Shown one piece after another: positions 6,001-40,647 of a stretch of 64,000 bases of DNA. The position numbers and the translations under genes were made by a program. Below the pieces are notes generated by a model. That model was given only the letters and a program-made list of their open reading frames with translations. It did no database searches and had not been told where the DNA came from. How positions within the stretch are numbered: position 1 is the stretch's first letter; the number at the start of each line of letters is the position of its first letter. Source of the DNA: an uncultured Gammaproteobacteria bacterium (GTDB lineage: Bacteria > Patescibacteriota > Patescibacteriia > SBBC01 > CAIJZX01); assembly GCA_964397195.1 (NCBI GenBank), contig CAYNGY010000002.1:180012-244011 (forward strand), in the 5' to 3' direction.

Positions 6001-9000
6001 GTTCCCAAGCTCGGGCACGGTTTCGGTGGCGACTATCTACATGAACCTTTATTATAATGACGTAACGTTGAGTCCGCGGACATATGGCGGAGACGTCCTG
6101 GCCATTTCGTTTACTGGTTCAAATCGGACGCTCTATTTTGGGGCGGTATCTGAGGCCGGATCGCTCACGATTGGGGGTAGCAAGCGTTTGTTACTATACG
6201 CACAAAGTACCGGAAATATCACGCTTGATAACACTCGGAATAATTGGAACGTCACGATAGGAACCGATCTTCAAACACCGGGGAGCGGGGGCGGAACGGA
6301 AACTATTCTGGCTGGTTCCGGCACGTGGACTGCGAGCGGAAACGTGACGTTTACCAACGGGATATTTACCGCTGGTTCGAGTACGTTGACGATGAACGGT
6401 ACATCAAAAACGTTGACCTCGGCCGGAAACGCGCTCAATAATTTCAATCAGACCGGTGGGACGGTGACGATGTCTGGTGCGACTACCGTCAATAACAACT
6501 TTACCATTACCAGCGGGACGTTGACGGCGCCGAGCGCGGCAAACCTGAGTGTTGGCGGCGACTTCAATAATGCGGGAACCTTCACCCATAACTCGGGGAC
6601 GGTCATCATGACCGGGACGAGCAAAAATATTACCGGCGGCTCGGCCACAACCTTCAACAACCTGCAGATTTCCGGGACGACTGGCATTGATGCGGCTGGG
6701 AGTGATGCGACCGTGGCTGGGACGTTGACGGTCGATTCGTCAAAAATTTTGACAATTAATACCGGCCGAGTGGTCACTCACACAGGTACGACCGACGTGG
6801 CAAATTCTGGAACGATACAGGGTGCCGGGACATTACGCTTTACGAGCTCTTCGACCGGTGGGCCTGGAACCGGCGGGGCTATCAACTCGATTGTTCGATT
6901 TGATGCGAGCGGCGCTAGTATCCCGACGGCGGTCGTCGATGCGCGGACATATGGTGGTGACCTCGAATACTATTCGAATGTGGCCGCGGTGCGTACGATC
7001 ACCCCGGCAAGTACGACTCACACGGTGAGCGGGAATTTGAAGATCATAACCGGTGCCAGTCAGACGTCCTCGTTTACCGTCGCGGCAAATACAAACAATC
7101 CGACGTTCACGATTGCTGGCAACCTGAGTTATACGAAGGGCGCTTCGGCCACGCCGGCTGTGACCAGTGGGTCCGGGACGTGGACGGTAAGCGGCGACGC
7201 GACCTTTACCAATGGCACATATACGCCATCAACGAACAATACGTTCGTGATGGATGGATCAGGGAAGACTGTAGCCAGTACGGTCAGTTTTTATAAATTT
7301 ACGAGCAACGGCACAATTACATCTACCGGGAATGTTAGTGTGGCAAATATTCTGACGCTTCAATCCGGTAAGAGTCTGACTGTTTCGGGGACCTTGAACT
7401 GCTCCAATGCGAGCACGATCGTTATGACCGGGGCGACGCTTGATGGCGCCGGTACCCTTATATACCAAAAAGGCGGGACGGGGTTCCCGACCGATGGGAC
7501 GTTAAATATCGCGACGACGATGTTTGCGCCGACAACGGGGGCCGTAACCATCCCAAGTCGAACGTATGGTGGTAGCGTAGTATGTGAAGATGGATTGTCT
7601 GCCACCACTTGCACATTGACGGGGACGCCGATTATTACCGGCAATCTTTCGTTGTACGATGTCAGCTTGGGGGCGTCGTTTGATGGTACGCCGACATCAG
7701 TTACGATCGGCGGGAATTTCTCAGGGATCAATAATGGTGGCGGGAATGGATTGACCATGGCTGGGACGTGGACGGTCAGTGGCGACTTCGACATGTCGAG
7801 CCTGTCGAGTTTTAGCGCCGGGACGAGCTCGTTGGTCATGAATGGTGCCACCAAAACGCTGACCACGAACGGGAATAGTTTGTATGATTTTAGTGTCTCG
7901 GGTGGGAGTGTTTCCGTGGCTGGCACAAATGCGACGGTGTCTCATGATTTGACGGTGAGTAGCGGGGTGCTGACCGCTCCGACGGGAACGCTTTCCGTCG
8001 GTCGTAATTTTGCCCATTCGGGCGGAACATTTACACACAATAACGGGACTGTCGCTTTAACGACGAGTACGGCGGCGGCGGTATCGGGGAGTACTACATT
8101 TAAGAATCTCTCGGTGACCGGGATTGGGGCGGCTAAAACTATCACCTTCACGGCCAGCTCGACCCAAACGGTGACGGGGACGTGGACGGTGACCGGCGCA
8201 TCAGGGCAGATTGTGACCTTGCAATCGAGCTCGTCACCCACCAAGTGGAATATTAACCCGACGGCGGCGAGCGTCAGTTACGCGGCTGTGACCGACTCCG
8301 ATAACCAAGGCGTTTCGTTCTGCGCCACGTTCTCAACGGGAAGTAGTAATACCGGTTGGTCAATCGGTGCTGGGGCGAGCTGTGGTATTACGGTGTCGGG
8401 GACAGTCTATCAGTCGTCGAATGAAGGGTCAGGATATGGATGTAACAGCGACAACCTGACCATGTATGTTGCGGTTAATGGTGATGTCACTCCGGATTCT
8501 GGATTATGCAATTCCGCAGGCGGGACATTCACCATCACCGGTGTGACCGACCCGGGCGCGGCGAATATTCCCATTGCGGTCTACATCGATACTGGGGAAT
8601 CGGTGAAGGGGACGACCGTCACGCTGTCGAGCGCCAGCGGAGCCGACATTTCAGGGCTTTCGTTGATGCTCGATCGACTGGTCGTGAGTCAACAGAGCGG
8701 GACGGCCACGACGAATTCTCACTTAAACACGGCCGATAACGGAAATGCCGGTATTCGATATGCCGTGTCCGGCGGTGCGTTAACCGTTGACGCGGGGATG
8801 GAGCTCCATGTCCTGAGCGGAAAAACATTCACACCGGGCGGCGCAGTAACCACAACGGCGACTGGAACAGCGGCGGGAGCGGCCGGCGATGTGCATATCG
8901 CCGGGACGTTAACGATGGGTACGAACGCGCTCAATGTCGGTGGCGACTATACAAATGCCGGTACATTTAATAAAACGAACACACAGACGACAACCTTTGC

Positions 9001-14758: not shown

Positions 14759-15784
14759 ATGTCAAAACAAATAGCACGTTCCCTCCTGATTGCCGCGGTT
14801 GTCCTCGCTGGACTGTCGGTTCACCATTCAGCGCAGGCGCTATCCTTAGTGCCACCGAGTTTGGAGTATAGCGTTAAGCCGGGAGATGTTGTTGCCGATC
14901 AGGTAAAGCTCTATAACGAACAGGATCAGTCCATGACGGTCACACCGTCGTCGGCGAATTTTGGTGCAAAAGACGAAACCGGCCAGCCGGACTTTACCTT
15001 TGATGCGCCATCGGCCGATTTGGCGTCGTGGATTACGCTTGATACATCGCCTCTGACGATTAAACCGAGCGATCGTGCCACAATTGCCTTCACCATCACG
15101 GTGCCAAAGAATGCCGAACCGGGCGGGCACTATGCCGGAATTTTCTTTGCCACCGGTGCGCCAAAAGAGGGACAGGTCGCGGTTCAATCAAAAATTGGGA
15201 CGTTGATTATTCTCAGTGTGGCAGGGAATGAGAAAGAATTAGCGTCGATTGTCGAAACCGGTGTCAATAATGCACAAAAAACACTTAGTCGCTTGCCGGT
15301 ATCATTTTTCGCGAGAATTCGGAATACCGGAAATGTCCATGTTCGCCCCGAGGGATCGGTGACGATTAAGAATATGTTCGGGCGAGTTTCGGCCGTGATT
15401 CCGGTGAACGATGTGCGCGGCGCGGTGTTACCGAAGAGTATTCGTCGTTTTGAGATGAGCTGGTCGAAAGGTGCGGATGTCTGTGATCAAGAACCCGATG
15501 GGACCTCAAAGCCGTGCGGTTTTTTTCAGCAAGTTGGCGCGGAGTGGCGGAACTTCGGATTTGGCACATACACTGCCTCGTTTGATCTGACCTATGGGAA
15601 AACATCGAAGGCGCTGAGTGACAGCGTTTCCTTCATGATCATTCCGTGGCGACTCTTGTTAGTTGAGTTTCTGGCCTTGGTGTTGCTAGTCGTGGTGTTC
15701 CTGTTTGGCATTCGTCGTTATAATCGCGCGATCATCCGGAGCGCGCAATCAAGGAAGAACATCCCGCCGGTTAAGCGCATGTAG
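14759..15784 (+). CDS. Surface protein with a signal peptide, a DUF916/DUF3324-like beta-sandwich region and a C-terminal transmembrane anchor. It resembles the CscA-type partner found in WxL loci.
   Basis: A signal peptide is present (LLIAAVVLAGLSVHHSAQA). The core YSVKPGDVVADQVKLYNEQDQSMTVTP resembles the DUF916 motif F.L.VKPGQ.Q.L.V.V.N. The C-terminal hydrophobic helix WRLLLVEFLALVLLVVVFLFGI is followed by a basic tail. Confidence 0.45.
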   Translation: MSKQIARSLLIAAVVLAGLSVHHSAQALSLVPPSLEYSVKPGDVVADQVKLYNEQDQSMTVTPSSANFGAKDETGQPDFTFDAPSADLASWITLDTSPLTIKPSDRATIAFTITVPKNAEPGGHYAGIFFATGAPKEGQVAVQSKIGTLIILSVAGNEKELASIVETGVNNAQKTLSRLPVSFFARIRNTGNVHVRPEGSVTIKNMFGRVSAVIPVNDVRGAVLPKSIRRFEMSWSKGADVCDQEPDGTSKPCGFFQQVGAEWRNFGFGTYTASFDLTYGKTSKALSDSVSFMIIPWRLLLVEFLALVLLVVVFLFGIRRYNRAIIRSAQSRKNIPPVKRM

Positions 15785-15787
15785 CCC

Positions 15788-16660
15788 ATGTTCGGCTCTT
15801 GGGCGCAGTTTGTTCATCGGGCGCTCCTCGGGAGCGTCGCTTTGGTTTTAGGGATGTGGCCGTATTCGGTGGCGGCGCAAACCGTGACCGGCTCGGCGTC
15901 GGTTGGAGTGAGTGCAGTCGTAATCGACCAGAACGTCGTGCCAACAAACCCGAGCGTCGAGTTTCATGGTGTTGTTTCGCCCAACGCGACGGTCACCATT
16001 TCTCGGGACGGGACGGTCGTGTCGTCACAGCTTGCTTCCAGCACAGCTGATTTTGTCGCCGTGTTGCTCGACCAGCCGGCTGGACCGCAAAACTATCTCA
16101 TCTCTGCGGTTGATACGAGCGGCGCGGCCTTAGCGCCGATCTCGTTTTCGCTAACGCTGGTGGTCAATACGAATACCATCATCACCGGCGTTTTCTTGGG
16201 TCCGTCAATTCGGATTGATAAATCAGCCGTCAAACTCGGCCAATATGTCACCGTAGCTGGTATGACCGCTCCGAGCAGTGATGTGAGCGTTACCATCCAT
16301 TCGACCCAGGCTAAGAGTTTTACGGTCACGGCCGACGGATCCGGGCGGTGGTCGAAGTTGGTGAACACGGATGATGTGGGTGTTGGAACGCATACCGCCC
16401 AAGCACGGGCCGTGCTCGGTGGGAGTCAAATTTCAGCGGTGAGCGCAGTAGTGTCGTTCGCGGTTAATCCGCTCGAACAGTGTGATGGAAAAAAGACGGC
16501 CGATGTGAATTGTGATGGACATGTCGATTTAACTGACTTTAGTATCTTGCTGTATTTCTGGCAACAGACAAATCCACGGAATAGTCGGGTCGATATTAAC
16601 GCCGATGGCCGGGTTGATGTGATTGATTTTAGTATCATGCTCTACCAATGGACAAATTAA
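15788..16660 (+). CDS. Secreted protein with Ig-like beta domains and a C-terminal type-I dockerin module of two Ca-binding repeats.
   Basis: The C-terminus reads DVNCDGHVDLTDFSILLYFWQQ...VDINADGRVDVIDFSIMLYQW. That is a duplicated DxNxDGxVDxxDfsilL dockerin signature. An N-terminal signal peptide is present. Confidence 0.75.
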   Translation: MFGSWAQFVHRALLGSVALVLGMWPYSVAAQTVTGSASVGVSAVVIDQNVVPTNPSVEFHGVVSPNATVTISRDGTVVSSQLASSTADFVAVLLDQPAGPQNYLISAVDTSGAALAPISFSLTLVVNTNTIITGVFLGPSIRIDKSAVKLGQYVTVAGMTAPSSDVSVTIHSTQAKSFTVTADGSGRWSKLVNTDDVGVGTHTAQARAVLGGSQISAVSAVVSFAVNPLEQCDGKKTADVNCDGHVDLTDFSILLYFWQQTNPRNSRVDINADGRVDVIDFSIMLYQWTN

Positions 16661-17766
16661 GAAACATGCTCGTAGTCGCTCCGGTGTTGGCGTTGAGTTT
16701 TTTAGCCGCGCCGGCGCGGGCCGTGGAGCCATCCATACAATTCGTCCCGCAAGTTGGCTTTACGCGACCGGGCGAGACGCTGACGGTTGATGTCCGACTG
16801 ACGAACCTAGATCAGCCAATTAACGCCGTTGACCTGTCAATCGGTTATCCAACCGATGTATTGCGACTTGATCGGATCGATCGTGAACGGTCAGCGTTCA
16901 CCCTATGGCCGGAGGAACCGCAAATTCAGTCAGCGTCGGGCGTGGCGCATGTTGTAGGCGGTCTGCCGAACGGTCTCTATGCGCATGACGCCCGGGTGGT
17001 GACGCTCCGATTTACAACGCGTCATGCTGGCCAAGGCGCCTTTCGCATCGTGGCCGGTAAGGTCTACCTCAATGATGGACTTGGTACGGCAGTGCCTATT
17101 GTCGCCGAACAGACAGCGGTTACGGTACAGAGTGAATTTCTCGATCATATTCAGCTGACGTCGTCGCATCATCCGAATGATGGCGCATGGAGTGCGGAAC
17201 GGACCGTCGATATTTCATGGGTCGCCGAGGCCGGACGACAATACAGTTACATTTTTGATGCGGACGGAACCATCGCTCCCGATACCCACCTGGATGAAAT
17301 CAAACCGTTGCTCTTTACGGATCTTGCCGACGGTCGATATTCATTCGCTATTATTTCGCGTGGCGCTGACGGTCTATGGTCTCCAGTTACCCAGCGTTGG
17401 TTTCTGATTGACGGCACTGCCCCGGAGGTACCAATCCTGGTCCACCCCGATCCGACGACCGTGAACGGGGCGAATCTTCTGGCCTGGTCAGCTGTTGATC
17501 GAATGTCGGGCATTGTCCGATCCGAACTGTACGTCGGTGGAAAAAAACAGGGCGATGTTGAGAGTCCCGTTCGATTACAATCTCGTTGGGCCGGTCAGAC
17601 GCTGACCATCCGGGCGTACGACGCGGCGGGGAATAGCCAAGCAGCGTCTTGGGTCATGCCGGGTATGCGCCAACCGAGCTGGGTAACGCTTGGGGCTGGC
17701 GGTGGTGGCCTATTACTTCTCCTGTTCGTGCTGGTCATCATATTCCGACAACGACGTCGAACATGA
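16648..17766 (+). CDS. Membrane-anchored protein with a signal peptide, a cohesin-like domain, an FN3/Ig-like domain and a C-terminal transmembrane helix. This is paralog 1 of 3.
   Basis: The N-terminal domain VEPSIQFVPQVGFTRPGETLTVDVRLTNLDQPINAVDLSIGYPTDVLRL...VTLRFTTRHAGQGAFRI fits the cohesin strand pattern. A C-terminal GGGGLLLLLFVLVIIF transmembrane segment is followed by RQRRRT. The start overlaps the upstream stop. Confidence 0.6.
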   Translation: MDKLRNMLVVAPVLALSFLAAPARAVEPSIQFVPQVGFTRPGETLTVDVRLTNLDQPINAVDLSIGYPTDVLRLDRIDRERSAFTLWPEEPQIQSASGVAHVVGGLPNGLYAHDARVVTLRFTTRHAGQGAFRIVAGKVYLNDGLGTAVPIVAEQTAVTVQSEFLDHIQLTSSHHPNDGAWSAERTVDISWVAEAGRQYSYIFDADGTIAPDTHLDEIKPLLFTDLADGRYSFAIISRGADGLWSPVTQRWFLIDGTAPEVPILVHPDPTTVNGANLLAWSAVDRMSGIVRSELYVGGKKQGDVESPVRLQSRWAGQTLTIRAYDAAGNSQAASWVMPGMRQPSWVTLGAGGGGLLLLLFVLVIIFRQRRRT

Positions 17767-26268: not shown

Positions 26269-29200
26269 ATGCGGCAAAAAAACATTCGAACAATTCTCAG
26301 CATTGGTCTTCTGGTGGCGGCAGTCAGCGGTGGGTTGTGGCTGGCTTCGACCGCTCTTCCGGCCTCGGCCCAGACCGCGACCGCCTTTAGTATCGAGTCG
26401 ATTGGGACCAAGGTTGGACTGAAGAATACCGACCTGTTGCAGGTGGTCTATAACGTCATTCGATGGGCGCTGGGTATCTTGACCTTCACTGCGCTCGGCT
26501 TTGTCATGTACGGCGGTTTCTTGTGGTTGACGGCGGCGGGGAATGAAAAGCAGATTGAAAAGGCGAAACGGGTCATTCTCCAGGCTTTAATCGGCATGGT
26601 CATTGTGCTGATCGCTTGGGCGATTGTCTTGTTCGTCGCCCGGTTCTTCCGTGATGCGACCGACACCGGGAACACGAACAATACGAACTCCGGTGTGTCG
26701 TGTTTGCCCGGAAGTCCGGATTGTCCTGACCCGACCAGCACGTTCAATGTGACGACCGTGGCTACCTGTGCGGATCCGTCGGATTACACGACGAACGTGC
26801 CGCGCTCAAGTAATGTGGCGGTGTTCTTTAATGCGCCGGTGGCCCAAGACTCCGTCCAGGGCGCGGTTGAAGGGTCGGCACCAAAACTGATGACCTTGCG
26901 CTGTGGGACTGATGCGGCGAACGATCCGGCCTGTGCGACTCAAGACGTGGCGACGCGACCAGTCAGCAGTCAGCGATTTACCGCCAACAAGTCGGCCGCC
27001 ACCGAATCGAATCCGGGGGCCGAATGGGTGGCGAAGCAGCGCAGTAATGCCATTACGTTTGTCCATCGCTCGTTTGATACAAACGCGACCGACGCGAAAA
27101 ATCAATTATTTGAAGCCGAGCGAAGCTACCGAATTCAGGTGCCGCGTCAGGGATCGGCGACGGCGCTGACCGATGCGACCACTCAAGAACGGCCACTGGT
27201 TGATTGTCGAAATGATGACGGCAGTATCATCCCAAACTGTCAGGTTGATACCGACCAGCATATTATTCACTGGACCTTCACGACGGGTGAAGATGTGGCC
27301 GGTCCGGCCTTTGGGGTGACAAAAACAGTGCCGGTTTCAACCTACAAGTATCCGACGCCGGTGCCATCACCCGCGCCGGTTCCGGATCGCGATGTCGATC
27401 GGGATGGCGCACTGTGTATTTATTTCAGCGGTGCGGTCGATCCAATGTCGGTTGATGCCTCGAGCTTCACGGTCACAAAGTATCAGGCGACCGCGCCGCC
27501 GACAGCGGCCGGGAACTGGGTCAACGGGACACTCGAGACATCGACCCTGCCGACGGGCGACTTTACCGAGCCGTATTTCGTGAGCGGCGGACGCGGGGTA
27601 TGTATCGGTCCGAAAGCGCAACATGAATACGACGCGTTCTCCTGGTATCGGGTGCATGTGGACGGGATTCGAAACTTGTGTGGGACGGAAATGTCGCCGA
27701 CCCCATTCGAATGGGTGTTTGAGTCGAATGATCGGTTGCCGGGTGTCGAGAAAGTATACCCAGCCGACGGGGCGACGAATATGTGCCCAGCGACAAAAGT
27801 GAAAGTCGTGTTCCGGACGTCGATGTGGAATCGAGAGGCAAGTAACTGTACGGTTGGTGTCGGAAGCTACGTCACAAGCGGTCGTCTGACGACGGGTGGT
27901 GTTGATGCCGGTCGGGCCTTCCAAGTGGTGGATCAATTTGATCCGGATCAACCCAACCAAAACTGTCGCGTCTTTGAATTTGCACCGACGACTACCGCGT
28001 TGCGGCTCGGCCAAACATATAACGGCGTAGTGCTGACCAATCGGTCCATCGACTCCGATGGCAAAAAGCTGGAGGTCGGGACGGAGAACTCCGGGCATCC
28101 ATGGAGCTTTACCGTTGGTGCCGATGCCGCTACCTGTGTGCAACCGCCGTTGATTACACGGATTAGTCCGGCGGCTGGGAAAAACGGCCAGTGTATTACG
28201 GTCCAGGGTGATTATTTTGAAAAAGTGAATCAGGCTGATACAAACCCGGATAAGGCCGATCCGGGAGATGGATTAACCTTGGGTGGGCGCGATCAACTTA
28301 CCGATGCGGATGCGACCTGGACGAATAATAGTATCGTGACGGTGGTCGATGCCGGATCGCTTGAGCGCGATCGAAAGCAGCCCTATAAGGTTACCGTTCA
28401 TTACGGCGCACCGCTGAACGTTGATTTATCTGATGAGGTGGCTGATCGATTTACGTTACAGTCCGGCGATGGGTCGAGTGGCCCGTGTTTATTGAAACTG
28501 ACAAAGACGAGCGGTCCGCCGGGCACCCTCTTTAATGCGCTAGGGAAACGATTTGGAAATGGGACTGGTCAGAGCGCGGTGGCTTATCCGCTGTCACCGG
28601 CCGCCCAAGAGTTGCCGTACGCGTCGTGGTCAGCGACACAGGTTACGGGTGCAAATATTGTGACGGGGACGCCGGTTGGTGAAGCGCCGGTGAGTATTGT
28701 CGATGCCGCCGGTCAGATCAGCAACGAGATTCAATTTACGACAACCGCGCCGGTCGTGGCTGGGCCCGGGGCGCCGCGGGTTGAGGAATCAACGCTCTGC
28801 GAGCTGGATCCGGCCCGACGTGCCATTCCAAGTCCGAATCCGAAAGATGGTGACCAGAACGTTTGCTTAACCGTCCAACCTGAAGTGCGATTTACGATGC
28901 CGATGTTGGATACGAGTCTCACGGCGAATGGGGCGGTCGTAGTTTCCGATTGCACGTCGGGAACGTGTGATGTCGTGCCCGATACGTCGGTACATGTTGA
29001 TGCGGATGCAAAAGGGCTACAAATTCAAATGCCCCGTTTGACGCCGAGCCATAAGTACAGTGTCACCATCAGTGGTGATGTGCAAAGTACGACTCATGCC
29101 GTGATGGGGGCGGATTATACATGGCGATTTACCGCTCAATCGGGGAATGGGGACTGCCCAATTAAGGCGATCGGTATTGCCGAACGGAATACCTCATTTT

Positions 29201-32200
29201 CGACTTTGCCGTTCTCATACGCGCTGCATTCGCGACTCTATGATGCGGCCTGTCGAAGTATTACCGGCGCATGTGCGGCATACGACTGGACAAAAACGTC
29301 GTCGCCGAATGTCATCACACTCTCGTCAACGACGAGTCAGGATACGATTGCCAGTAGCGTTGACGATGGCACGATAGAGGAGGGGGTGGCGTCGGTGCAG
29401 GTGCAGTGTCAGGAGAAAGTCTCGCCGAAAGTGACGATCACGTACGACGCGACATCTTGTACGAGCGACGCGCAGTGTCAGGGCACGAATCGATTTGGTG
29501 AATCATGCACCACGGCTTCGCACTGCGTGAACTCTAGTTGTACGCCGGTGGTGACGAAACTAATGCCGGACAGTGGTCGGGCCGGTTCAGGTGTTTCGAT
29601 TCATGGCTGTTGGTTTGGCTCGTATGTTGACGGACGGAGTAAGGTTATTTTCGGCGCTGACCAAGGCGAACTCGCAAGAGAGGCACCGGCGTTTGACCCG
29701 CAGATCTGTGATAATCGTAGCAGTTGGCAAAATGATTATATAATCCGGGCGGTGCCGGCGAGTAGCGTTACCGGGTCGGTCAAAGTGATTCGGAGCGATA
29801 CGCGAGAGGCTAGCAGCGGCACGCCGTTCACCGTCAATACGGTGCTCCATCCGATATTGTGTAAGGTCCTTCCGCCATCGGCCGCACCGGGAACAAATGT
29901 GACAATGGTTGGAACGGGGTTCACTGATAAAACACTTCCGGATGCCTCATTGCCGGTTGACTCTTCAAATACGACCGCCCAAAGCTCAGCCCTGATTCAA
30001 AATGTTGATGCCGCGGCGAGTCTGCGGTCCATGACCGGATACCTGCGCTGGAACGACAAAGAGATTGCCGCGCCAATACCAAGCATCGGCTTCGGACTGA
30101 GCCGCGTTTATATTCGCGCCAATGCGATTGAGTCAAATGATGTCCTATTTACCGTTAAGGACCCGAACGCAGCGGCCTGTGTTTCTTGTACCGAGACGAC
30201 ATCCTGTCCAAATGCTGCTGATGGGTCGGTGCAGGGCTGTTCAAACGTGACAAAATGCTGCGCGCCGAGGCCGCGGGTTATTTCCTCAAATCCAAATGAC
30301 GGAGAGACGAATATGTGTCGCAATACTGTGACGCAACTACGTTTCTCGTTGCCGCTTGATGCCAATACCGCAACACCGGAGTCTGTGCGATACACCGACG
30401 GCGCATTTGTCCGGGCGACTGAGGTGAGCGTCCATACCGATGGTACCGAGGGTATTCTCACCATTCAGCCGGGACTGCTCGAGTCGAACGCTACCCAGCG
30501 TGTCTCCTTGCAAGGAGTGGCCGTAGCGAACGTTGCGGATCTCAAAAACGCGTCATTTGAAACAATGCAAAATGGCCAGGTGGCTTCGTGGGTAAACGTG
30601 CGGTCGAAGCAGACAACCGATCATCCCTCGGGTGTGACAGGGAAGTCGGGATTGGCCGATTGTTCCAACTGCGCAGCCGGTGAGCAAGCGTATTTAGCGC
30701 AAACTATCTTCCAATCGAACGGTGATCCGTGGCCGGCGAATAGCATGTTCCGAATAACCGGGTGGGTGAAAGTTGAACAGCCGGCCAACGTAAAATCTGG
30801 TTTGATCACACAGTGTACGGACGCGGCGGACCGACTGATTGATTGTACGTTTGATCTGGTTGAGGCGGCACCAGGATTATTCACCGGTACCTCGAGTGGG
30901 TGGCGGAAAGTGACATGGTATGCGCGAACAACGGTTCCGGCCGGATTGCATCTGAACTGTTTCGCTCGGGCTGGGGCCAAGACCTGGTGCGATAGCATCG
31001 TGGTCGAGCGAATGACTGATCAGGCGACGACGCTTCGTGGGCAGAATGGTGTTTTAGTTGACACGACAACGGGGACAAGGAGCTTCACCACGAGCACGGA
31101 AATATGTACGCTGGACCACGTGTCGGTCACCCCGTCGTATGATCATTGGGAAACAACGAATGACCAGCAAACATTCGTCGCTGAGGCTCGATCAACGAAT
31201 GGGCAGGTTATCGCGAATACGCCGGCATATAGTTATACGTGGACATGGAAAACTGGTGACGCGGGGATTGCAAAGCTCGGGACTGGTTCAGATCAAATTT
31301 CATTCAGTCTGCGGCAGGCTCTCTCGGGCGGGAAAATTGGGTCAACGCGGGTAACGGCCACAGCGGCGGTGACCACGAATAGTGCCCAGCCAACCGAGAA
31401 ACCGAAGAAGTCTGGCTCGGCAAGAATTGTTTCCTCAGTTTGTGCGAATCCTTGGCAGTTTGTTGATTCGGCAGATAATTGTGACACGGCGTCGTCACCA
31501 GCCGCCTGTGCAGACTTTAATTTCCAGATTGATTACTGCCGCGGAGCGGTCGGGGCGACACTCTTACCGGACTTCTCATATGTCGGTCAGGATGCGAGCA
31601 CGGGCATTGGTGCCATTGAAGGGGAGAATACGTCCCTCGGTCGCAAGAAATCTATTTTCTTTAAGGTCGATGCAAATGCAACTGATGCAATCGGGATTCT
31701 CATTTACGATAATACAAACTTTTTAACGCCAGCCGACTGGTTTGCGGATCACTTTCCATCACGTGCCGGCTCGGGCGTCTTCACGACTGTTGGTGGTTAC
31801 GGTGCCTATCAGGTTGGTTCAACCGTCTACGTTGGGGTGACCGATTTGGTTGGAACGGCGATGCGTGGACGCATCTTCGTCTTCGACTACAACTCCAATC
31901 AAGCGGATAGTCAGACAAAAGTTGTCTACACAGCGATGCTTGATGGCTTGATGTTCAACAATAATTTGAATGACGATATTGAGCGAGGCCAGCTCCAGCG
32001 CGATACGCAGCGCCGGCAAGATCTGAGTGCCATGGCTCGTTTGCTCGAGGCATACAAAAAGAGTAAAGGCACATTCCCATCCCTCGGCTCGGGGAGCTAC
32101 GTGACCGGGATCTCAACATCAAAGTGGCCGTCGTGGCAGGCGACACTTGGGGCGGCCTTGGGGAAGACGTTGCCGGTTGATCCACTCAATTCATTTGCCC

Positions 32201-32514
32201 GCACCTGTTCCGACAATGCGGCCCAACGGTGTACCCATGATGATCAGTGTGGTGGCGGGACCTGTAAGGCCCAAACCGTGTGTGCGACGCCCTTCGAGTC
32301 GTCGACCTGTTGGGCGGAGTCAACCCATAGATTTATGTTCCCAGCGGGCTCGACCGTTTATGGATATCAGTTCTCGGCCGGAACGTACCAGCTCAGTGCG
32401 CAGATGGAGTATGCGGGGGTCGGCAGTTTCCGGAACTTCTCGCCGCGATCAGCCGAGTGTGAATCAGGGGCGCTGAACGACTATCAGTGCTATAATTACC
32501 ATTACATCCAGTAA
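26269..32514 (+). CDS. Giant (2081 aa) cell-surface protein. It has an N-terminal signal peptide plus a VirB2/TrbC-pilin-like double-transmembrane module, several IPT/TIG domains and Cys-rich modules, and a C-terminal type-IV-pilin-like globular domain.
   Basis: The N-terminus reads LQVVYNVIRWALGILTFTALGFVMYGGFLWLTAAGNEKQIEKAKRVILQALIGMVIVLIAWAIVLFV, with two hydrophobic helices as in T4SS pilins. IPT-like segments include PLITRISPAAGKNGQCITVQGDYFE, VVTKLMPDSGRAGSGVSIHGCWFG and ILCKVLPPSAAPGTNVTMVGTGFT. The C-terminal RDTQRRQDLSAMARLLEAYKKSKGTFP matches the pilin/pseudopilin helix motif RxxDLxxxxxALELYxxxxGxYP. Confidence 0.6.
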   Translation: MRQKNIRTILSIGLLVAAVSGGLWLASTALPASAQTATAFSIESIGTKVGLKNTDLLQVVYNVIRWALGILTFTALGFVMYGGFLWLTAAGNEKQIEKAKRVILQALIGMVIVLIAWAIVLFVARFFRDATDTGNTNNTNSGVSCLPGSPDCPDPTSTFNVTTVATCADPSDYTTNVPRSSNVAVFFNAPVAQDSVQGAVEGSAPKLMTLRCGTDAANDPACATQDVATRPVSSQRFTANKSAATESNPGAEWVAKQRSNAITFVHRSFDTNATDAKNQLFEAERSYRIQVPRQGSATALTDATTQERPLVDCRNDDGSIIPNCQVDTDQHIIHWTFTTGEDVAGPAFGVTKTVPVSTYKYPTPVPSPAPVPDRDVDRDGALCIYFSGAVDPMSVDASSFTVTKYQATAPPTAAGNWVNGTLETSTLPTGDFTEPYFVSGGRGVCIGPKAQHEYDAFSWYRVHVDGIRNLCGTEMSPTPFEWVFESNDRLPGVEKVYPADGATNMCPATKVKVVFRTSMWNREASNCTVGVGSYVTSGRLTTGGVDAGRAFQVVDQFDPDQPNQNCRVFEFAPTTTALRLGQTYNGVVLTNRSIDSDGKKLEVGTENSGHPWSFTVGADAATCVQPPLITRISPAAGKNGQCITVQGDYFEKVNQADTNPDKADPGDGLTLGGRDQLTDADATWTNNSIVTVVDAGSLERDRKQPYKVTVHYGAPLNVDLSDEVADRFTLQSGDGSSGPCLLKLTKTSGPPGTLFNALGKRFGNGTGQSAVAYPLSPAAQELPYASWSATQVTGANIVTGTPVGEAPVSIVDAAGQISNEIQFTTTAPVVAGPGAPRVEESTLCELDPARRAIPSPNPKDGDQNVCLTVQPEVRFTMPMLDTSLTANGAVVVSDCTSGTCDVVPDTSVHVDADAKGLQIQMPRLTPSHKYSVTISGDVQSTTHAVMGADYTWRFTAQSGNGDCPIKAIGIAERNTSFSTLPFSYALHSRLYDAACRSITGACAAYDWTKTSSPNVITLSSTTSQDTIASSVDDGTIEEGVASVQVQCQEKVSPKVTITYDATSCTSDAQCQGTNRFGESCTTASHCVNSSCTPVVTKLMPDSGRAGSGVSIHGCWFGSYVDGRSKVIFGADQGELAREAPAFDPQICDNRSSWQNDYIIRAVPASSVTGSVKVIRSDTREASSGTPFTVNTVLHPILCKVLPPSAAPGTNVTMVGTGFTDKTLPDASLPVDSSNTTAQSSALIQNVDAAASLRSMTGYLRWNDKEIAAPIPSIGFGLSRVYIRANAIESNDVLFTVKDPNAAACVSCTETTSCPNAADGSVQGCSNVTKCCAPRPRVISSNPNDGETNMCRNTVTQLRFSLPLDANTATPESVRYTDGAFVRATEVSVHTDGTEGILTIQPGLLESNATQRVSLQGVAVANVADLKNASFETMQNGQVASWVNVRSKQTTDHPSGVTGKSGLADCSNCAAGEQAYLAQTIFQSNGDPWPANSMFRITGWVKVEQPANVKSGLITQCTDAADRLIDCTFDLVEAAPGLFTGTSSGWRKVTWYARTTVPAGLHLNCFARAGAKTWCDSIVVERMTDQATTLRGQNGVLVDTTTGTRSFTTSTEICTLDHVSVTPSYDHWETTNDQQTFVAEARSTNGQVIANTPAYSYTWTWKTGDAGIAKLGTGSDQISFSLRQALSGGKIGSTRVTATAAVTTNSAQPTEKPKKSGSARIVSSVCANPWQFVDSADNCDTASSPAACADFNFQIDYCRGAVGATLLPDFSYVGQDASTGIGAIEGENTSLGRKKSIFFKVDANATDAIGILIYDNTNFLTPADWFADHFPSRAGSGVFTTVGGYGAYQVGSTVYVGVTDLVGTAMRGRIFVFDYNSNQADSQTKVVYTAMLDGLMFNNNLNDDIERGQLQRDTQRRQDLSAMARLLEAYKKSKGTFPSLGSGSYVTGISTSKWPSWQATLGAALGKTLPVDPLNSFARTCSDNAAQRCTHDDQCGGGTCKAQTVCATPFESSTCWAESTHRFMFPAGSTVYGYQFSAGTYQLSAQMEYAGVGSFRNFSPRSAECESGALNDYQCYNYHYIQ

Positions 32515-32524
32515 GCTTTCGCGT

Positions 32525-32869
32525 ATGACCGACCACCTCGAAATGCCGTCACCAGCCCCATTCGGTTGGCGTGGTCGTTTGGCGTCGAAGCGAAAAATCG
32601 TTATACTAGGCGGGCTTCTCGTGATACTCTTGATTCTTGGGGCGGTTGCCTTTTTCACGCGAAATCCACTTGGACCAAGCGATCCCGATATCAACACCAG
32701 TACGGAGAATACGAACACACCGGGTTCAAGCTCAACAAACCGAACATTCGAACGTTTTCAGGCGGTCGTCAATCGGCCGACAACGAATACGCCGACTAAC
32801 CTGAATCGTCCGACCAAAGAAGATACGGCGGAAGCCATTCGTTCACTCACTAACACCAACCCACGTTAA
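32525..32869 (+). CDS. Small bitopic membrane protein with an Asn/Thr-rich tail.
   Basis: A single transmembrane segment IVILGGLLVILLILGAVAFF is present. The extracellular tail is low-complexity (NTNT). Confidence 0.4.
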   Translation: MTDHLEMPSPAPFGWRGRLASKRKIVILGGLLVILLILGAVAFFTRNPLGPSDPDINTSTENTNTPGSSSTNRTFERFQAVVNRPTTNTPTNLNRPTKEDTAEAIRSLTNTNPR

Positions 32870-32874
32870 TCAAC

Positions 32875-34254
32875 ATGCCTATGTTTGACTCACCACGTCC
32901 ACCACAAGCGCCGAACCCACTCAACCCAGTGATGCCGGCACCAGGAATGCAGACGCCGATGCCGGGAGCGGTTCCGCCTCCGCCAGCGCCTGGCCCAAGT
33001 TTGCCACCACAGCCACAGATTCATACAATGCCGGAACGATTCCGATCTACTGGTGGGTCAGCGAAGGGGGGCGGTGGTTCGAAGCGGTTGATTATTATTC
33101 TCGCCGTGGTGATTGGAGTTGGAGTGATCGTGTTGGGTGGTTTGTACGCCATGAACCGTTTCTTGTTAAACGGGAATGCAAATACCGCCAACACGAATAC
33201 CGAGCTTAATACGAACGCTGATGAGAATACCAACGCCGATGGTGGTGAGGTCCGCGATACCCAACGGAAAACCGATATTTCGGCAATTGTGACCGCCGCG
33301 CAGGATGTATTTGCCACGACCAGCGCGTATCCGACCACATTGGATGCCCTGAAGGCAGCGACCACAACAACCACGCTTAATATTACGGATCCGGGAACCG
33401 GTGTCGCGTATACGTACCAAACCTGTGATAGCGCGACCCATTTTGTGGTTACGGCGACACTTGAGACCGGCGAGGCGTGGGCGGCGAGTGATGTGACGAC
33501 GCTGGGGCAGGTTGGCGCCTTGTCATGCGGACAGGCAACCAACACCAATACGAGTACGAACACGAATAGCACGGTCGATTCGAACACGAATACAACGACG
33601 AACACGAATACCTCGACTAACACAAATACATCCACCTCCACCTCTTCCTATCTCAACTTGCCGTCGTCAACGGATACGGATGCTGATGGGTTGACGGATA
33701 CCGAAGAGGGCGTCTACGGGACGGTGGTCTCGAACCCAGACACGGATGGTGACGGGTTCATTGATGGGAAACAAACCCGAACGGATGGCACAGTCGTTGG
33801 AGAGCTCTACAACTTGTATGACCCGACGAAAGCGAATGGCGGCACTCTTGAAAGCAGCACCATTGCGCAGCGAGTATCGGATACGGCCAATACCTACAGC
33901 GTGCTCGCGCCAAAAGCCTGGACGTCGACTCCTGACGCGCAGGGCGGCATTCTCATCCAACCCTCGATCAATACCGGCGAGTTCTTCAAATTGAGTGTGG
34001 CGGACAATGCGTCGGGGCAGACACCAAAGCAGTGGTATCTGCAAGCAAACCCGTCGGCGGCGATCGATACGATGTCGACCGTGGCGGTCAACGGCCTTGA
34101 GGGCTTGGTGAGCGAAGACGGAACGACAGTCTATCTCTTTAAAGGGACAAAAGTGTACGCCATTCAGTATGGGGTTGGTTCGGTGACGAAGGTGAGCTAC
34201 CGCGCGACCTTCGATCTGATTGTCCGCAGTTTCAAGCTCGTTGCCAGTAGCTAA
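32875..34254 (+). CDS. Bitopic membrane protein. It has a Pro-rich N-terminus, a transmembrane helix, an Asn/Thr linker, a pilin-like domain, TSP3-like Ca-binding Asp repeats and a C-terminal beta domain.
   Basis: The transmembrane segment is RLIIILAVVIGVGVIVLGGL. The pilin-like helix is VRDTQRKTDISAIVTAAQDVFATTSAYPTTLDAL. The aspartate repeats are DTDADGLTDTEEGVYGTVVSNPDTDGDGFIDGKQ. Confidence 0.55.
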   Translation: MPMFDSPRPPQAPNPLNPVMPAPGMQTPMPGAVPPPPAPGPSLPPQPQIHTMPERFRSTGGSAKGGGGSKRLIIILAVVIGVGVIVLGGLYAMNRFLLNGNANTANTNTELNTNADENTNADGGEVRDTQRKTDISAIVTAAQDVFATTSAYPTTLDALKAATTTTTLNITDPGTGVAYTYQTCDSATHFVVTATLETGEAWAASDVTTLGQVGALSCGQATNTNTSTNTNSTVDSNTNTTTNTNTSTNTNTSTSTSSYLNLPSSTDTDADGLTDTEEGVYGTVVSNPDTDGDGFIDGKQTRTDGTVVGELYNLYDPTKANGGTLESSTIAQRVSDTANTYSVLAPKAWTSTPDAQGGILIQPSINTGEFFKLSVADNASGQTPKQWYLQANPSAAIDTMSTVAVNGLEGLVSEDGTTVYLFKGTKVYAIQYGVGSVTKVSYRATFDLIVRSFKLVASS

Positions 34255-37594: not shown

Positions 37595-39109
37595 ATGGCG
37601 TCCATTATCCAGGGGCATGCCCGTCGATGGTTGACGGTTTTTTTGTTTGTAGCGATGATTGGGTTTACCGGCTGGTATGGCTGGCAATGTGGATTGAATG
37701 CCAGTGTGGCCGATGTTGCTTCTCAGGATTTACCGCATGCCTGGCAAACGGTTTGGAATGTCGCCCATGGCCATGGTTTTCGGTACACCGATCTGTTACG
37801 GCAGCTCGATCTGCCGCGGTTGTCGGCGCACGCTGATTACATCTTATTAGGATTGGCGCCCTTGGCGCGGGTCTGGTCAGACTATATGATCCTCGTTTGG
37901 GTTCAGGCTGCCGTCGTTGCTTCAGGCGCTTTGGCGGTGTGGCGGATTAGCCGACGCTGGGTTAATGCGGATGGCTGGAGTTTCGGTCTCAGCCTGGCCT
38001 ATCTCCTGAATGGCCCGTTGCAGTTTGCGGTCACATTCCAGTTTCACGCCATCACCTTGGCGGTCGGCTTTATCCTCTGGATGGCTGAGGCGGTGGTCTA
38101 TCGGCGACGGTGGTGGGTGATAGGATTGTGGTTGTTGTTGGCACTCTGCACAAAAGAGCAGGTCGGGTTGATTGTCGGGCCACTCATTTGGTGGCTAGCG
38201 GCAACTGAAGGAAAAAAGTCCCTGGGGTATCTTTTCGGGGCGGTGGCGGTACTATGGAGTACCGTCCATTTTGTCTGGATAATTCCGGCGATGCGTACAA
38301 CGGGTGGCCCGCATTTATTCTGGGAGTTTTATTATGGTTCACTTGGTGATACACCGCGAGCGATACTCCCGCGCCTGATGCAACCGATGGAGCTGTGGTC
38401 ACGACTGGTGTCTTGGTCGCAAGTCGGACGCGGAGTCGCTCTCCTCGTGCCGTTCGCCGGTCTATCTCTCGGCTCACCATTGATCCTTCTGGCCGCCGCC
38501 GCCTGGGTACCACATGCGCTTGGTGATTCGGAAGCCGTCCGTTCTCTCTATTATCAGAATCAGGCTTTGGCCATTCCGATTTTGACGCTGGCCGCCATCG
38601 ATACCGTTCGTCGTCTTTCTCGTTGGGCGCGCTGGCCGCGTTTTCAGCTGCCGGCTCTTCTTGGCGGACTGGTACTGCTGACGATTGGTAGCGGCATATT
38701 TAGCCCGAATCCATGGAGCGCGGTCTATCGGCCCGTTTTTCGCGCCGGCGATGATCGGGTAGAGATTTTTCAGACGATGGATCGCCTGATTCCGGCGTCA
38801 GCCGTGGTGGCGGTGTCATGGGGCTTGCCCCCGACATTCCGGGATCACCCGACGGTGTACGTACTCCCGGCTGGCGTGGCCCAGGCGGAGTATGTTGTGG
38901 TGGGCGTCAGTGCGCTGGAGACGCTCCGGACCTACGCTCCGGCCTATGCGTCCGACCTTCGCGACTATTTTGACCATTCAGTGGCGTTTATGCCGGTCAT
39001 TCGCTATGCTGATGTAGTCTTGTACCGGCGCGTGCCCGGTGTGACCCCGGAGCCGCTCCCAGCCGGTTTTCATGACCCGACCCTCAATCGATATTGGTCT
39101 CATCCGTAA
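37595..39109 (+). CDS. Large polytopic membrane protein, paralog A of a tandem pair (DUF2079-like, possibly a glycosyltransferase-type membrane protein).
   Basis: More than ten hydrophobic segments are present. It shares blocks with the next gene (HAWQTVWNVAHGHGFRYT vs MSQTVWRAGHGYGFSFT; NGPLQFAVTFQFHAITLAV vs YAPLQFAVIFEFHAVTLAI; CTKEQVGL vs MKEQVGV). Confidence 0.5.
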   Translation: MASIIQGHARRWLTVFLFVAMIGFTGWYGWQCGLNASVADVASQDLPHAWQTVWNVAHGHGFRYTDLLRQLDLPRLSAHADYILLGLAPLARVWSDYMILVWVQAAVVASGALAVWRISRRWVNADGWSFGLSLAYLLNGPLQFAVTFQFHAITLAVGFILWMAEAVVYRRRWWVIGLWLLLALCTKEQVGLIVGPLIWWLAATEGKKSLGYLFGAVAVLWSTVHFVWIIPAMRTTGGPHLFWEFYYGSLGDTPRAILPRLMQPMELWSRLVSWSQVGRGVALLVPFAGLSLGSPLILLAAAAWVPHALGDSEAVRSLYYQNQALAIPILTLAAIDTVRRLSRWARWPRFQLPALLGGLVLLTIGSGIFSPNPWSAVYRPVFRAGDDRVEIFQTMDRLIPASAVVAVSWGLPPTFRDHPTVYVLPAGVAQAEYVVVGVSALETLRTYAPAYASDLRDYFDHSVAFMPVIRYADVVLYRRVPGVTPEPLPAGFHDPTLNRYWSHP

Positions 39110-39111
39110 CT

Positions 39112-40647
39112 ATGAAACGCTCAACGTTCTTCCGCCAGGCGCCGATATGGATTGTCGTGGGAGCGATGATTGTTTACGCTGTGTTTTGGTCATGGTTTAC
39201 GATTGGCCGGGCGGCTAATTACACGGCCGGGTGGTACGATCTGGGAATTATGAGCCAAACGGTGTGGCGAGCTGGGCATGGGTATGGTTTTAGCTTCACG
39301 AACCCGGAAATGGGCGCCAATGGTCAGCATGGCTTGGAAACGGTCCGAACCGCTATTCATACCGACTACATCCTCTGGCTCCTTGGCCCCCTTTCGTGGG
39401 TCGGGACGACGTGGAAGAACCTGTTGGCGCTTCAGGCCGTGGTGGTGGCCCTTGGGGCTTGGTTCATCTTTCGCCTCGGTCGACGATTCCTTGATTCCGC
39501 CTGGTGGGGCTGCGGCCTCGGATTGGTGTATTTGCTCTATGCGCCATTGCAATTCGCGGTCATTTTTGAGTTTCATGCGGTGACGCTGGCTATTTTGTGC
39601 ATTCTTGCGGCGGCCGATGCGATTGTCGGCAAGCGCCCACGTTTGGCGTGGGTGTGGGTGGCGCTCGCCCTGATCATGAAAGAGCAGGTTGGCGTTACGC
39701 TGGGGCTCATGACCGGGTGGTTATGGTGGCGTCAGCATCAACGGCGACAAGCTATCCTGATGGCCGCGGTCTGTTGGATCTACGCCATCGTCCAGTTGGT
39801 CGTAATTATTCCGGCGTCGCGTCCGAATCTACCGGCCAGTTTCGTGTCAGGGAAGTTCTACTCGGCCGAGGAGGGGAGTTTGGCCATGGTCAAGCGTTTA
39901 TGGCCGCCTCAGGCCGCGTGGAACCGCCTGGTGACCGCCCAGCATCGTTCCGACCTGACCCAGCTCTTTGTACCGCTCGGCGGGGTTATCCCGCTCTTGA
40001 GCCCGGTGACCTATTTTATGATGCCGGAGGCGCTGGTCTACTGGCTATCGGATAGCCCGAACCAGCAGACGCTCTATCTGCACTATCAGGCCCTGTTCAT
40101 TCCATGCCTGTTCCTTGGGCTGTTGTTTGGTTTGCACTGGATCCGGCGTCGTTTTGGGCGCTGGTGGTGGCCATGGGCATCTTGGGCGTCAATATTCTTG
40201 ATTGTAGCCGGGTCGGTCTGGATGCTCCGGGTGGCGAGTCCATTGCCGTGGAGCCCGATGACTCGCTGGCCGTTAGTGGCCTGGAAAGAGCGTCAGAGCC
40301 CCGACGTGCAGGCGGCGCTGGCATTGTTGCCAAAAGATGCGTCCGTGGCCGTCACGCAAAATCTGGGGCCACAGGCGAGCGAGCGGCCGCGAGTGACCCT
40401 GCTGCCAACGGGAGCGGGGACGGAGCGCTTCCTATTGATACTCCAGCGTTCTTTTGACCCGGCGGTGCGGTCGAATGATAAGCGCTATGCCGAACGGACG
40501 ATGCTCGAACAGCTGTTGGCTTGGGTTGAGGCACAGCCAGCGTCGTTTACTGTGCGATATCACGTCGATCGGGTCTGGTTGATCGAGCGAATCGGCACGC
40601 CGACGCTCCCAGAGCCAACATGGCCAGATAATTTATTAGGTCGGTAG
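39112..40647 (+). CDS. Large polytopic membrane protein, paralog B of the tandem pair.
   Basis: See paralog A. The start was chosen at MKRSTFF, just after the upstream stop. Confidence 0.5.
   Translation: MKRSTFFRQAPIWIVVGAMIVYAVFWSWFTIGRAANYTAGWYDLGIMSQTVWRAGHGYGFSFTNPEMGANGQHGLETVRTAIHTDYILWLLGPLSWVGTTWKNLLALQAVVVALGAWFIFRLGRRFLDSAWWGCGLGLVYLLYAPLQFAVIFEFHAVTLAILCILAAADAIVGKRPRLAWVWVALALIMKEQVGVTLGLMTGWLWWRQHQRRQAILMAAVCWIYAIVQLVVIIPASRPNLPASFVSGKFYSAEEGSLAMVKRLWPPQAAWNRLVTAQHRSDLTQLFVPLGGVIPLLSPVTYFMMPEALVYWLSDSPNQQTLYLHYQALFIPCLFLGLLFGLHWIRRRFGRWWWPWASWASIFLIVAGSVWMLRVASPLPWSPMTRWPLVAWKERQSPDVQAALALLPKDASVAVTQNLGPQASERPRVTLLPTGAGTERFLLILQRSFDPAVRSNDKRYAERTMLEQLLAWVEAQPASFTVRYHVDRVWLIERIGTPTLPEPTWPDNLLGR

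Follow-up and report, generated by a model that had tools for sequence, protein, structure and literature searches.

A conserved surface-protein cassette of Patescibacteria with a hairpin-anchored giant and a putatively pilin-derived head

Gene layout and protein architecture

We analysed a 64,000-nucleotide stretch of DNA, here called the window (contig CAYNGY010000002.1 of assembly GCA_964397195.1, positions 180,012 to 244,011), from a bacterium that is deposited as an uncultured gammaproteobacterium and placed by GTDB among the Patescibacteria, or candidate phyla radiation (CPR). The subject of this work is a group of three adjacent genes, A, C and B, and the origin of the domain that ends the protein encoded by A. 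Gene A (26269..32514) encodes a giant surface protein of 2081 amino acids (aa), gene C (32525..32869) a single-pass membrane protein of 114 aa with an N/T-rich tail and a transmembrane (TM) helix at aa 19-50, and gene B (32875..34254) a single-pass membrane protein of 459 aa whose family is conserved in Patescibacteria; 151 homologues were found. The three genes, and all their parts described below, lie on the plus strand. The spacing is 30 nt between yqeY and A, 10 nt between A and C and 5 nt between C and B, and these short gaps on a single strand count for one cassette. NCBI and Logan both contain the exact sequence of protein A, with no name attached, as part of a contig of 246.5 kb. The gene models in public databases let B begin at Met29 (window position 32959), which gives 431 aa, and likewise shorten C at its N-terminus, to 82 aa; the N-termini of homologues (MFE/MFD...NPLNP) support Met1 or Met3 as the probable start of B.

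The N-terminus of A had been described in a first-pass annotation, made from the letters of the window, as a signal peptide plus two hydrophobic helices as in the pilins of type IV secretion systems (T4SS), and this description holds. Hydropathy analysis recovers hydrophobic segments at aa 6-32 (the signal), 63-88 and 98-131, and none after aa 131. The Sec-type signal peptide (aa 1-34; 26269..26370) has a basic n-region, MRQKNIR, a hydrophobic core and a putative cleavage site between PASA and QTA. It is followed by a two-helix hairpin of the VirB2/TrbC type (aa 35-131; 26371..26661), in which the helices at aa 63-88 and 98-131 are joined by the basic loop GNEKQIEKAKR. The Pfam family T4SS_pilin (PF18895) matches aa 58-121 with 28.9 bits against a curated cut-off of 26.6, and the NCBIfam Mbov_0395 pilin-like model scores 32.5 bits, under its cut-off of 40. 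Among the families that the first-pass annotation had named for comparison, T4SS_pilin is the one above threshold; TrbC/VirB2 (PF04956) gives no match to A at E≤1 in the Pfam scan, nor does N_methyl. By the positive-inside rule both ends of the hairpin would lie outside and the loop inside, which would place the ∼1,950 aa that follow the hairpin in the extracellular space. The hairpin is the best-conserved part of A, with 60-67% identity to ten orthologues, compared with 28-36% for the stalk and 34-51% for the head; the orthologue in locus L002, also of 2081 aa, is 37% identical over the full length. In its signal peptide, two hydrophobic helices, short basic loop and hidden Markov model (HMM) score above the cut-off, A resembles the VirB2/TrbC-type T4SS pilins of CPR (PF18895). 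Known members of that group are small and often found in arrays or near virB4 (10.1101/2025.01.22.634366), whereas the hairpin of A carries the ∼1,950-aa extension and its gene stands without a T4SS neighbour in a fixed, housekeeping-type context.

Between the hairpin and the head extends a stalk of Ig-like domains with several Cys-rich linkers (aa 136-1719; 26674..31425). Big_5 matches the whole of A with an E-value of 2.3e-22 (80.1 bits), and segment scans place it at aa 491-615, 855-955 and 1334-1415 (43.8, 31.1 and 23.5 bits). IPT/TIG domains are found at aa 627-714 (window 28147-28410), 1093-1188 and 1198-1295, with 25.9, 18.6 and 13.4 bits, so that one exceeds the Pfam cut-off of 20.9 and two fall below it; they are seen only when the segments are scanned separately. 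A had been annotated as an IPT/TIG surface protein, and the IPT/TIG domains are indeed present, although the stalk is a mix of them with Big_5. Scans with Pfam and NCBIfam detected no LPXTG and no beta-barrel or secretion-system anchor domain in A. The very long tandem Ig-like stalk projecting a terminal module is shared with giant Ig-repeat adhesins (Big, IPT/TIG, fn3). Unlike them, A is anchored by a pilin-type hairpin, has a conserved head, and is encoded by a gene that belongs to the syntenic core rather than to an island.

The head is introduced by a Cys-rich segment (aa 1720-1783; 31426..31617) with the pattern CxxPW...NCD...C..NF...YCR, which is conserved in the giant subfamily: a local HMM of this segment, 'nterm', matches most of the giants listed. 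Two domains follow. The first, domain X (aa 1784-1895; 31618..31953), is beta-rich and shows the pattern DAIGxRVxxNxxxLSPxxWY...VDGYxA..GRTVYV...IYVISYN. The second, the pilin-head domain (aa 1896-2081; 31954..32511), begins with a helix resembling alpha1-C that contains RDTQRRQDL (window 31999-32025) and continues through YK..G.FP, S.WPSWQ, LPVDPLN, a Cys-rich insert and the strands VYGY...L.A.MEY. An AlphaFold2 (AF2) model of aa 1720-2081 has a mean confidence (pLDDT) of 79 and a predicted TM-score (pTM) of 0.85. Foldseek searches with the two-domain model return weak matches only, namely PsbP, Tsi3, SciW, LpqN and MucB (E 5e-3 to 0.1), with a probability of up to 0.92 and a TM-score of ∼0.4 on the target. 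These matches indicate a putative PsbP/DcrB-like fold for domain X. The earlier description of the C-terminal ∼250 aa as pilin-like is correct in kind and too wide in extent: the pilin-like part is confined to the last ∼186 aa, and the preceding ∼110 aa are a separate PsbP-like domain.

The two domains behave as one module. A word-index search with the C-terminus of A found six relatives, and an alignment of these seeded an exhaustive HMM search, which returned 1,659 cluster representatives at E≤1e-3, 1,316 of them at E≤1e-30. With the profile split in two, domain X and the pilin-like domain were found directly adjacent and in the same order in 153 of 153 proteins analysed (150 listed cluster representatives plus the matches of the first search). 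The tandem of a PsbP-like domain and a pilin head is contained in no annotated family among the matches obtained.

Protein B has a single hydrophobic segment, at aa 66-98. Its first part (aa 1-98; 32875..33168) consists of a Pro-rich N-terminal region (aa 1-65; 32875-33069) and the TM helix. The family pattern of the N-terminal region is NPLNP...Q(V/I)HTMPE(R/K)F(R), present in B as NPLNP...HTMPERFR, and M52, P53 and F56 are invariant in 13 homologues. This region is probably cytoplasmic, and its motif may be a docking peptide. Between the TM helix and the next conserved element runs an N/T-rich, low-complexity linker, into which a miniature pilin-like domain is inserted (aa 123-220; 33241..33534) with an RDTQRKTDI helix followed by AYP, ITDP, YTY and VVTATLE. 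The conserved element is a putative bacterial TSP3-type Ca-binding repeat (aa 262-300; 33658..33774), DTDADGLTDTEE...DTDGDGFIDG. TSP3_bac (PF18884) matches 12 of the 13 B-family members, with a best E of 1.1e-5, B itself scoring 9.3 bits at a cut-off of 25; the Asp and Gly columns of the repeat are invariant in the family alignment.

The C-terminal ∼155 aa of B (aa 301-459; 33775..34251) form the conserved core of the B family and are a second copy of domain X. The alignment of profiles by hhalign relates domain X of A to this region with 98.4% probability (E 6.9e-15, 95 columns), and the HMM matches between the two are reciprocal within the window. Pfam PsbP matches weakly (E 0.12, sub-threshold) in three of 13 B homologues, and the family member P0091 carries precomputed matches to PsbP, DcrB and PsbP_2. 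The resemblance to extracytoplasmic PsbP/DcrB/LpqN domains of the Mog1/PsbP fold is thus seen as weak Foldseek matches for domain X of A and weak Pfam matches in the B family; all of the scores lie below curated thresholds. Gene C has positional orthologues of 113-145 aa in loci L001-L003, which come from close and distant relatives, at 29-50% identity.

Relation of the head domain to pilins

The motif that connects A and B lies at aa 1911 of A (RDTQRRQDL, window 31999) and at aa 127 of B (RDTQRKTDI, window 33253). A relaxed expression, RD[ATVS]xR[KRIMLTAQ]xD[LIVM], finds only these two sites when the whole window is read in six frames, which agrees with the first-pass annotation of a motif common to both proteins. 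Two copies of a nine-residue motif of this type in adjacent genes cannot be put down to chance. It was also correctly noted that no prepilin-peptidase site precedes the motif: Pfam N_methyl matches neither A nor B, and no long open reading frame (ORF) in any of the six frames of the window contains a GFTLIE-type site. In addition, the pilin head of A lacks the hydrophobic alpha1-N, there being no hydrophobic segment after aa 131. The absence of both the class-III signal and alpha1-N excludes a canonical assembly of this head into a pilus.

The similarity to pilins is not restricted to the motif. Among 38 members of the A-domain family scanned singly, 14 match the pseudopilin family T2SSG (PF08334), with a best E of 0.0017, and any other family is matched by at most two. 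One member covers positions 9-71 of the 108 in the T2SSG profile, a stretch that reaches from the helix to LPxDP. Against four solved GspG sequences the A-family profile aligns in register with 70% probability, over 29 helix columns only. A metagenome scan for prepilins recovered 74 sequences, two of which (L086 and L087) carry the motif directly after alpha1-N. L086, with the segment GFTLIELLVVIAIISLLSSVVLSSLSGARANSRDARRLQDINQIRTALELYYNDNGQYP, scores 34.5 bits for N_methyl and 21.1 bits for T2SSG (cut-off 21); L087, with the segment ARDAQRKADLRNIQTALRLYYND, scores 32.0 and 18.9 bits against the same two families, and both pass Pfam N_methyl.

L086 is a genuine prepilin with a GFTLIE leader. 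The profile of 38 A-domain sequences aligns with it at 97.3% probability (E 2.3e-11, 110 columns; 97.1% in a local run). The alignment comprises residues 38-151 of the precursor and begins where alpha1-N ends; it passes through EWSILAAEL...LPVDPTN, corresponding to WPSWQATLG...LPVDPLN in A, and reaches the Y.L.A.E strand. With HMMER, the A-domain family scores 33.4 bits against L086 and at most 6.5 bits against 51 complete prepilins that lack the motif. The part of the alignment beyond the helix is not due to the selection of L086 for its motif. The helix (R/K)DxxRxxD(L/I)...AL..Y...G.YP, the loop helix, LPxDPxN and the Y.Y...L.A.E strands are features that A shares, in addition to the 110-column homology, with T2SSG-class pilins and pseudopilins (N_methyl PF07963 with T2SSG PF08334; L086, and GspG/PulG of PDB 1t92). 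A-type domains differ from them in the loss of the leader, of Gly-1/Glu+5 and of alpha1-N, in their internal or C-terminal position behind a PsbP-like domain, and in their extra Cys-rich inserts and S.WPSWQ motif.

An AF2 model of the pilin-like domain alone is confident (pLDDT 85.8) and contains a 31-residue helix, a loop helix and beta-hairpins. Searches of PDB by sequence, with the C-terminus of A, the insert of B and the 38-sequence profile, returned nothing relevant, and a search for motif-bearing prepilins among 84 CPR loci gave none that was useful. We conclude that the C-terminal domain of A, its three-dimensional fold being a predicted one, probably derives from a T2SSG-class pilin head after loss of the leader and alpha1-N.

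The insert of B appears to be a reduced relative of this domain. It aligns with the profile of A-type domains at 83% probability (E 9e-6, 81 columns), which points to a relationship between the motif regions of A and B. Against prepilins it reaches 90.7% (L087) and 76%, over the helix only (∼32 columns), and against GspG 4.5%; it has no Pfam match of its own, and a word-index protein search with the insert alone gave zero matches. The insert is present in B and in its nearest homologue, P0007, and absent from 11 other aligned homologues. A linker of ∼28 N/T-rich aa separates the TM helix of B from the RD helix, and the TM helix also occurs in homologues without the insert. We read the insert as a putative minimal, recently acquired and lineage-specific copy of the pilin head. 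The first-pass annotation had placed the pilin-like motif in the ectodomain of B; the resemblance to the A-type profile holds for aa ∼123-220 and does not extend to the rest.

Conservation and rearrangement of the cassette

Upstream of A lie the genes for histidyl-tRNA synthetase (HisRS), a HIT-like protein, S21 and YqeY, the HIT-like call resting on the sequence and on a Pfam HIT match of the L002 orthologue. Downstream of B follow the genes for YbeY, DagK, FtsA, FtsZ, two DUF2079 proteins, a class II ribonucleotide reductase (RNR) and CobA. By its content the window resembles a CPR genome. The order S21, YqeY, giant, small TM protein, B, YbeY, DagK, FtsA and FtsZ is also found in L001-L003. 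When species-representative genomes were searched with the B family, ∼50 Patescibacteria loci were recovered, with record titles that refer to Uhr-, Kerfeld-, Falkow-, Komeili- and Magasanikibacteria or to the Parcubacteria group; the first five we take to belong to the GTDB class ABY1. Where enough sequence is available, the C-terminal module of A lies 5' of B on the same strand in 31 of 40 loci, and FtsA is encoded within 4 kb 3' of B in 36 of 42. The first-pass annotation considered the architecture unusual. The combination of known parts is indeed new, but it is no local oddity, being a conserved cassette of ∼50 Patescibacteria genomes. Many TPA_asm records of metagenome-assembled genomes (L007, L008, L011, L016-L018 and others) that carry the giant, B, YbeY, DagK, FtsA and FtsZ are titled 'uncultured Gammaproteobacteria bacterium', a label that looks wrong for records with this CPR-type cassette.

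The hairpin is present in 75 of 81 module-bearing proteins of at least 1400 aa. The six without it also lack an N-terminal signal peptide and look mostly like fragments or proteins with mis-called starts. In several loci the giant and the module are encoded separately. On the ENA REYS20-1 scaffolds L166 and L167, a hairpin giant of 2171 aa ends in fn3 repeats with no module at its end; the module occupies the corresponding place as a separate signal-peptide protein of 287 aa, and TSP3/B-like genes, YbeY, DagK, FtsA and FtsZ come next. L168 and L169 are split in a similar way; the stand-alone module genes, of 287-323 aa overall, directly follow the giant that lacks the module. L167 contains two tandem hairpin-bearing giants. 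This pattern of fusion and fission suggests that the giant and the module are functionally linked.

A second class of proteins consists of a signal peptide, the module and a variable Cys-rich tail; it makes up 56 of the proteins analysed, and the hairpin occurs in none of them. Two such module-first proteins, in L170 (1047 aa) and L171 (521 aa, cut at the contig end), have Cys-rich tails and are encoded 3' of fpg, directly in L170 and with one gene between in L171, with no giant nearby. Module-first proteins without a hairpin, two of them in this separate context, suggest that the module is a reusable unit. That every mid-size module-first protein is a tail split off from a giant was considered and rejected, since two adjoin fpg in unrelated surroundings.

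Almost all genes of the window, including almost all long ORFs, lie on the plus strand, and the GC skew is positive in 31 of the 32 2-kb bins across positions 1-64000; both fit a single replichore with a strong leading-strand gene bias. A scan for promoters and terminators between 25.2 and 37.7 kb gave the same counts as shuffled sequences and is uninformative, its sole notable site being a terminator-like hairpin with a T-run at 37621-37637, directly after the ftsZ stop. The two DUF2079 genes, tandem membrane-protein paralogues (37595-40647), lie directly 3' of ftsZ.

The window contains other notable genes, all on the plus strand. A second giant ORF (77-11920; 3947 aa, GTG start) has as its sole Pfam match PATR, in four stretches (E 1.2e-14); this autotransporter passenger-associated repeat is odd for a CPR cell with presumably a single membrane. 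Neither the hairpin nor the two-part module was found in this ORF. Three neighbouring genes at 14759-17766 encode surface-type proteins with a weak WxLIP_PGBD/fn3_5-like match, a type I dockerin (E 1.6e-9) and a cohesin-like domain (E 3e-4), and may represent a cohesin-dockerin pair in a CPR genome. ComEC is encoded at 55843-58057 as two overlapping ORFs, with the Competence domain in 55843-57213 and the metallo-beta-lactamase domain in 57188-58057, either through a natural split or through a frameshift.

Possible roles of the cassette

With moderate confidence, we interpret A, C and B as a conserved chromosomal surface-protein cassette of Patescibacteria, whose head was made from pilin parts and whose proteins are not pilus subunits. 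A would be exported by Sec and, after cleavage of its signal peptide, held in the cytoplasmic membrane by the VirB2-type hairpin, with the ends out and the basic loop in. Its ∼1,600 aa of Big_5 and IPT/TIG domains would form an extended stalk, capped by a fixed head in which the PsbP/DcrB-like domain is predicted to pack on the pilin-derived domain. Having lost the class-III leader and alpha1-N, the pilin head could neither be cleaved by PilD nor be stacked into a filament in the canonical way, and it would act as a soluble binding or interaction module. B would cross the membrane once, with its N-terminus inside, and expose the putative Ca-binding TSP3 repeat and a PsbP-like domain as in A; its low-complexity linker would have gained the minimal copy of the pilin head in this lineage. 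Beyond the domain identities and homologies, the absent pilin assembly signals, the gene order and the fusion and fission of the head module, all of which are observed, we infer that the head of A, B and C jointly form a surface contact or adhesion complex, directed to a host cell or to the cell's own envelope.

Several observations weigh against this interpretation. The sequence of A on its own gives no T2SSG match, and Foldseek searches of PDB and BFVD with the confident model of the pilin-like domain, a structure prediction that the first-pass annotation had proposed, matched no solved pilin, so that the homology to pilins rests on sequence profiles. The prepilin bait was a consensus written by hand, used only for the metagenome scan, and the helix part of the L086 and L087 matches is partly a product of selection, because only two of the 74 prepilins had the motif and they were picked for it. 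Adhesin heads are usually variable, whereas in A the stalk (28-36% identity) is less conserved than the head (34-51%) and especially than the hairpin (60-67%). The module of the split variant P0161 has an apparent TM anchor of its own, which would locate it at the membrane instead of a distal tip. Finally, the fixed site beside ftsA and ftsZ may reflect merely the rigid gene order of small genomes.

A structural role, or one linked to division, has to be taken seriously as a rival, although we regard it as fairly unlikely. The cassette would then be an envelope scaffold, with the hairpin of A in the membrane, the head on the wall, the S-layer or B, and the N-terminus of B linked to FtsA/FtsZ. 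This would suit conserved ends of A around a variable middle, the constant site before ybeY-dagK-ftsA-ftsZ (36 of 42 loci), the invariant MPxxF motif in the predicted cytoplasmic part of B and the apparent membrane anchor of the split module P0161. It would also suit the use of the module as the conserved N-terminal unit of many variable secreted proteins, as is the case for wall-anchoring modules. However, the Pfam and NCBIfam scans detected no known wall-binding or FtsZ/FtsA-binding domain, and the module-first paralogues beside fpg stand in an unrelated context. Gene order here is conserved over tens of kb irrespective of function, including the unrelated genes for HisRS, S21, NrdR and RNR, which makes the adjacency to ftsA and ftsZ weak evidence.

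The first-pass annotation had proposed a pilus-tip adhesin system, and a pilus-associated adhesin in this sense seems improbable to us. The hairpin would allow A to be extracted and either incorporated into a T4SS-type pilus of small VirB2-like pilins or added to its tip, where it would display the stalk, or else the pilin heads would dock on type IV pili. The hairpin does pass the T4SS_pilin threshold, its conservation is higher than a passive anchor seems to need, and ComEC is encoded in the window. VirB2-like pilins and T4SS are moreover widespread in CPR, often at a distance from virB4 (10.1101/2025.01.22.634366). On the other hand, the summary of the same paper names Magasanikiibacteriota among the T4SS-bearing CPR phyla and does not name Uhr-, Kerfeld- or Falkowbacteria (10.1101/2025.01.22.634366). 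VirB4, VirB3, VirB6, PilB/GspE, PilC/GspF and PilD are all missing from the 64-kb window, and the syntenic 21-kb loci read, including L002 and L003, likewise contain no VirB4, VirB6, PilB, PilC, PilD or other pilus gene, nor, in L002 and L003, VirB3. A search for pilus biogenesis genes, which the first-pass annotation had recommended, therefore came back empty over this range. Nor does the window hold any further T4SS_pilin-like gene. An extension of ∼1,950 aa on every subunit would presumably be sterically incompatible with a homopolymer. The lack of pilus and T4SS genes in the window leaves the pilus-tip proposal unsupported, and the heads without leader and alpha1-N, the conservation of the cassette and the recent origin of the piece inserted in B speak against it as well.

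Quite improbable, too, is a hybrid conjugative/type IV appendage encoded as a core cassette beside ftsA/ftsZ. In such an appendage the hairpin would be recognised by a membrane machine, either a CPR T4SS or an unknown extractor, that lifts A into or onto a fibre, with the head and B forming the docking site; recognition by the machine would account for the hairpin's 60-67% identity. Another CPR-specific surface appendage made of Ig-like folds is the Pam pilus, whose pilins use donor-strand exchange and chaperone-usher-like factors and which occurs in Saccharimonadia and Microgenomatia (10.64898/2026.03.03.709456). The A-C-B locus shows none of these donor-strand or chaperone-usher traits, and we rejected the Pam pilus, a different system, as the identity of the A system. 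That the C-terminal domains are unrelated to pilins and share a helical motif by chance is very improbable: no pilin of PDB was found by sequence or by Foldseek, the alignment to the four solved GspG sequences (70%) covers just 29 helix columns and the B insert lacks a Pfam match, but 14 of 38 family members match T2SSG, the 110-column alignment to L086 (97.3%) extends past the helix via WxxL...LPVDPxN to the Y.L.A.E strand, and the HMMER score of 33.4 bits to L086 stands against at most 6.5 for the 51 complete prepilins without the motif.

A life in attachment to other cells is assumed for CPR bacteria, and to our knowledge almost nothing is known of the surface molecules that mediate this attachment outside Saccharibacteria. 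Cluster look-ups returned no functional name for any family member looked up, all being unnamed or 'hypothetical', and full-text literature searches turned up no account of the giants or the two-part module. The parts of A are of known kinds; what is new is their combination, with a pilin head that serves as a free module and a cassette that is conserved. The analysis adds a large unnamed family of hairpin-anchored giants, to which 75 of the 150 best-scoring cluster representatives belong (at least 1400 aa, with the hairpin), together with a widespread two-part module (1,659 clusters), a conserved partner protein, B, and a fusion/fission link that joins them. It suggests that a pilin head can be separated from the helix through which pilins polymerise and serve as a domain like any other, and it cautions that 'pilin' HMM matches in CPR genomes are not in themselves proof of pili. 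The cassette offers a concrete target for metaproteomics, cryo-electron tomography and binding assays.

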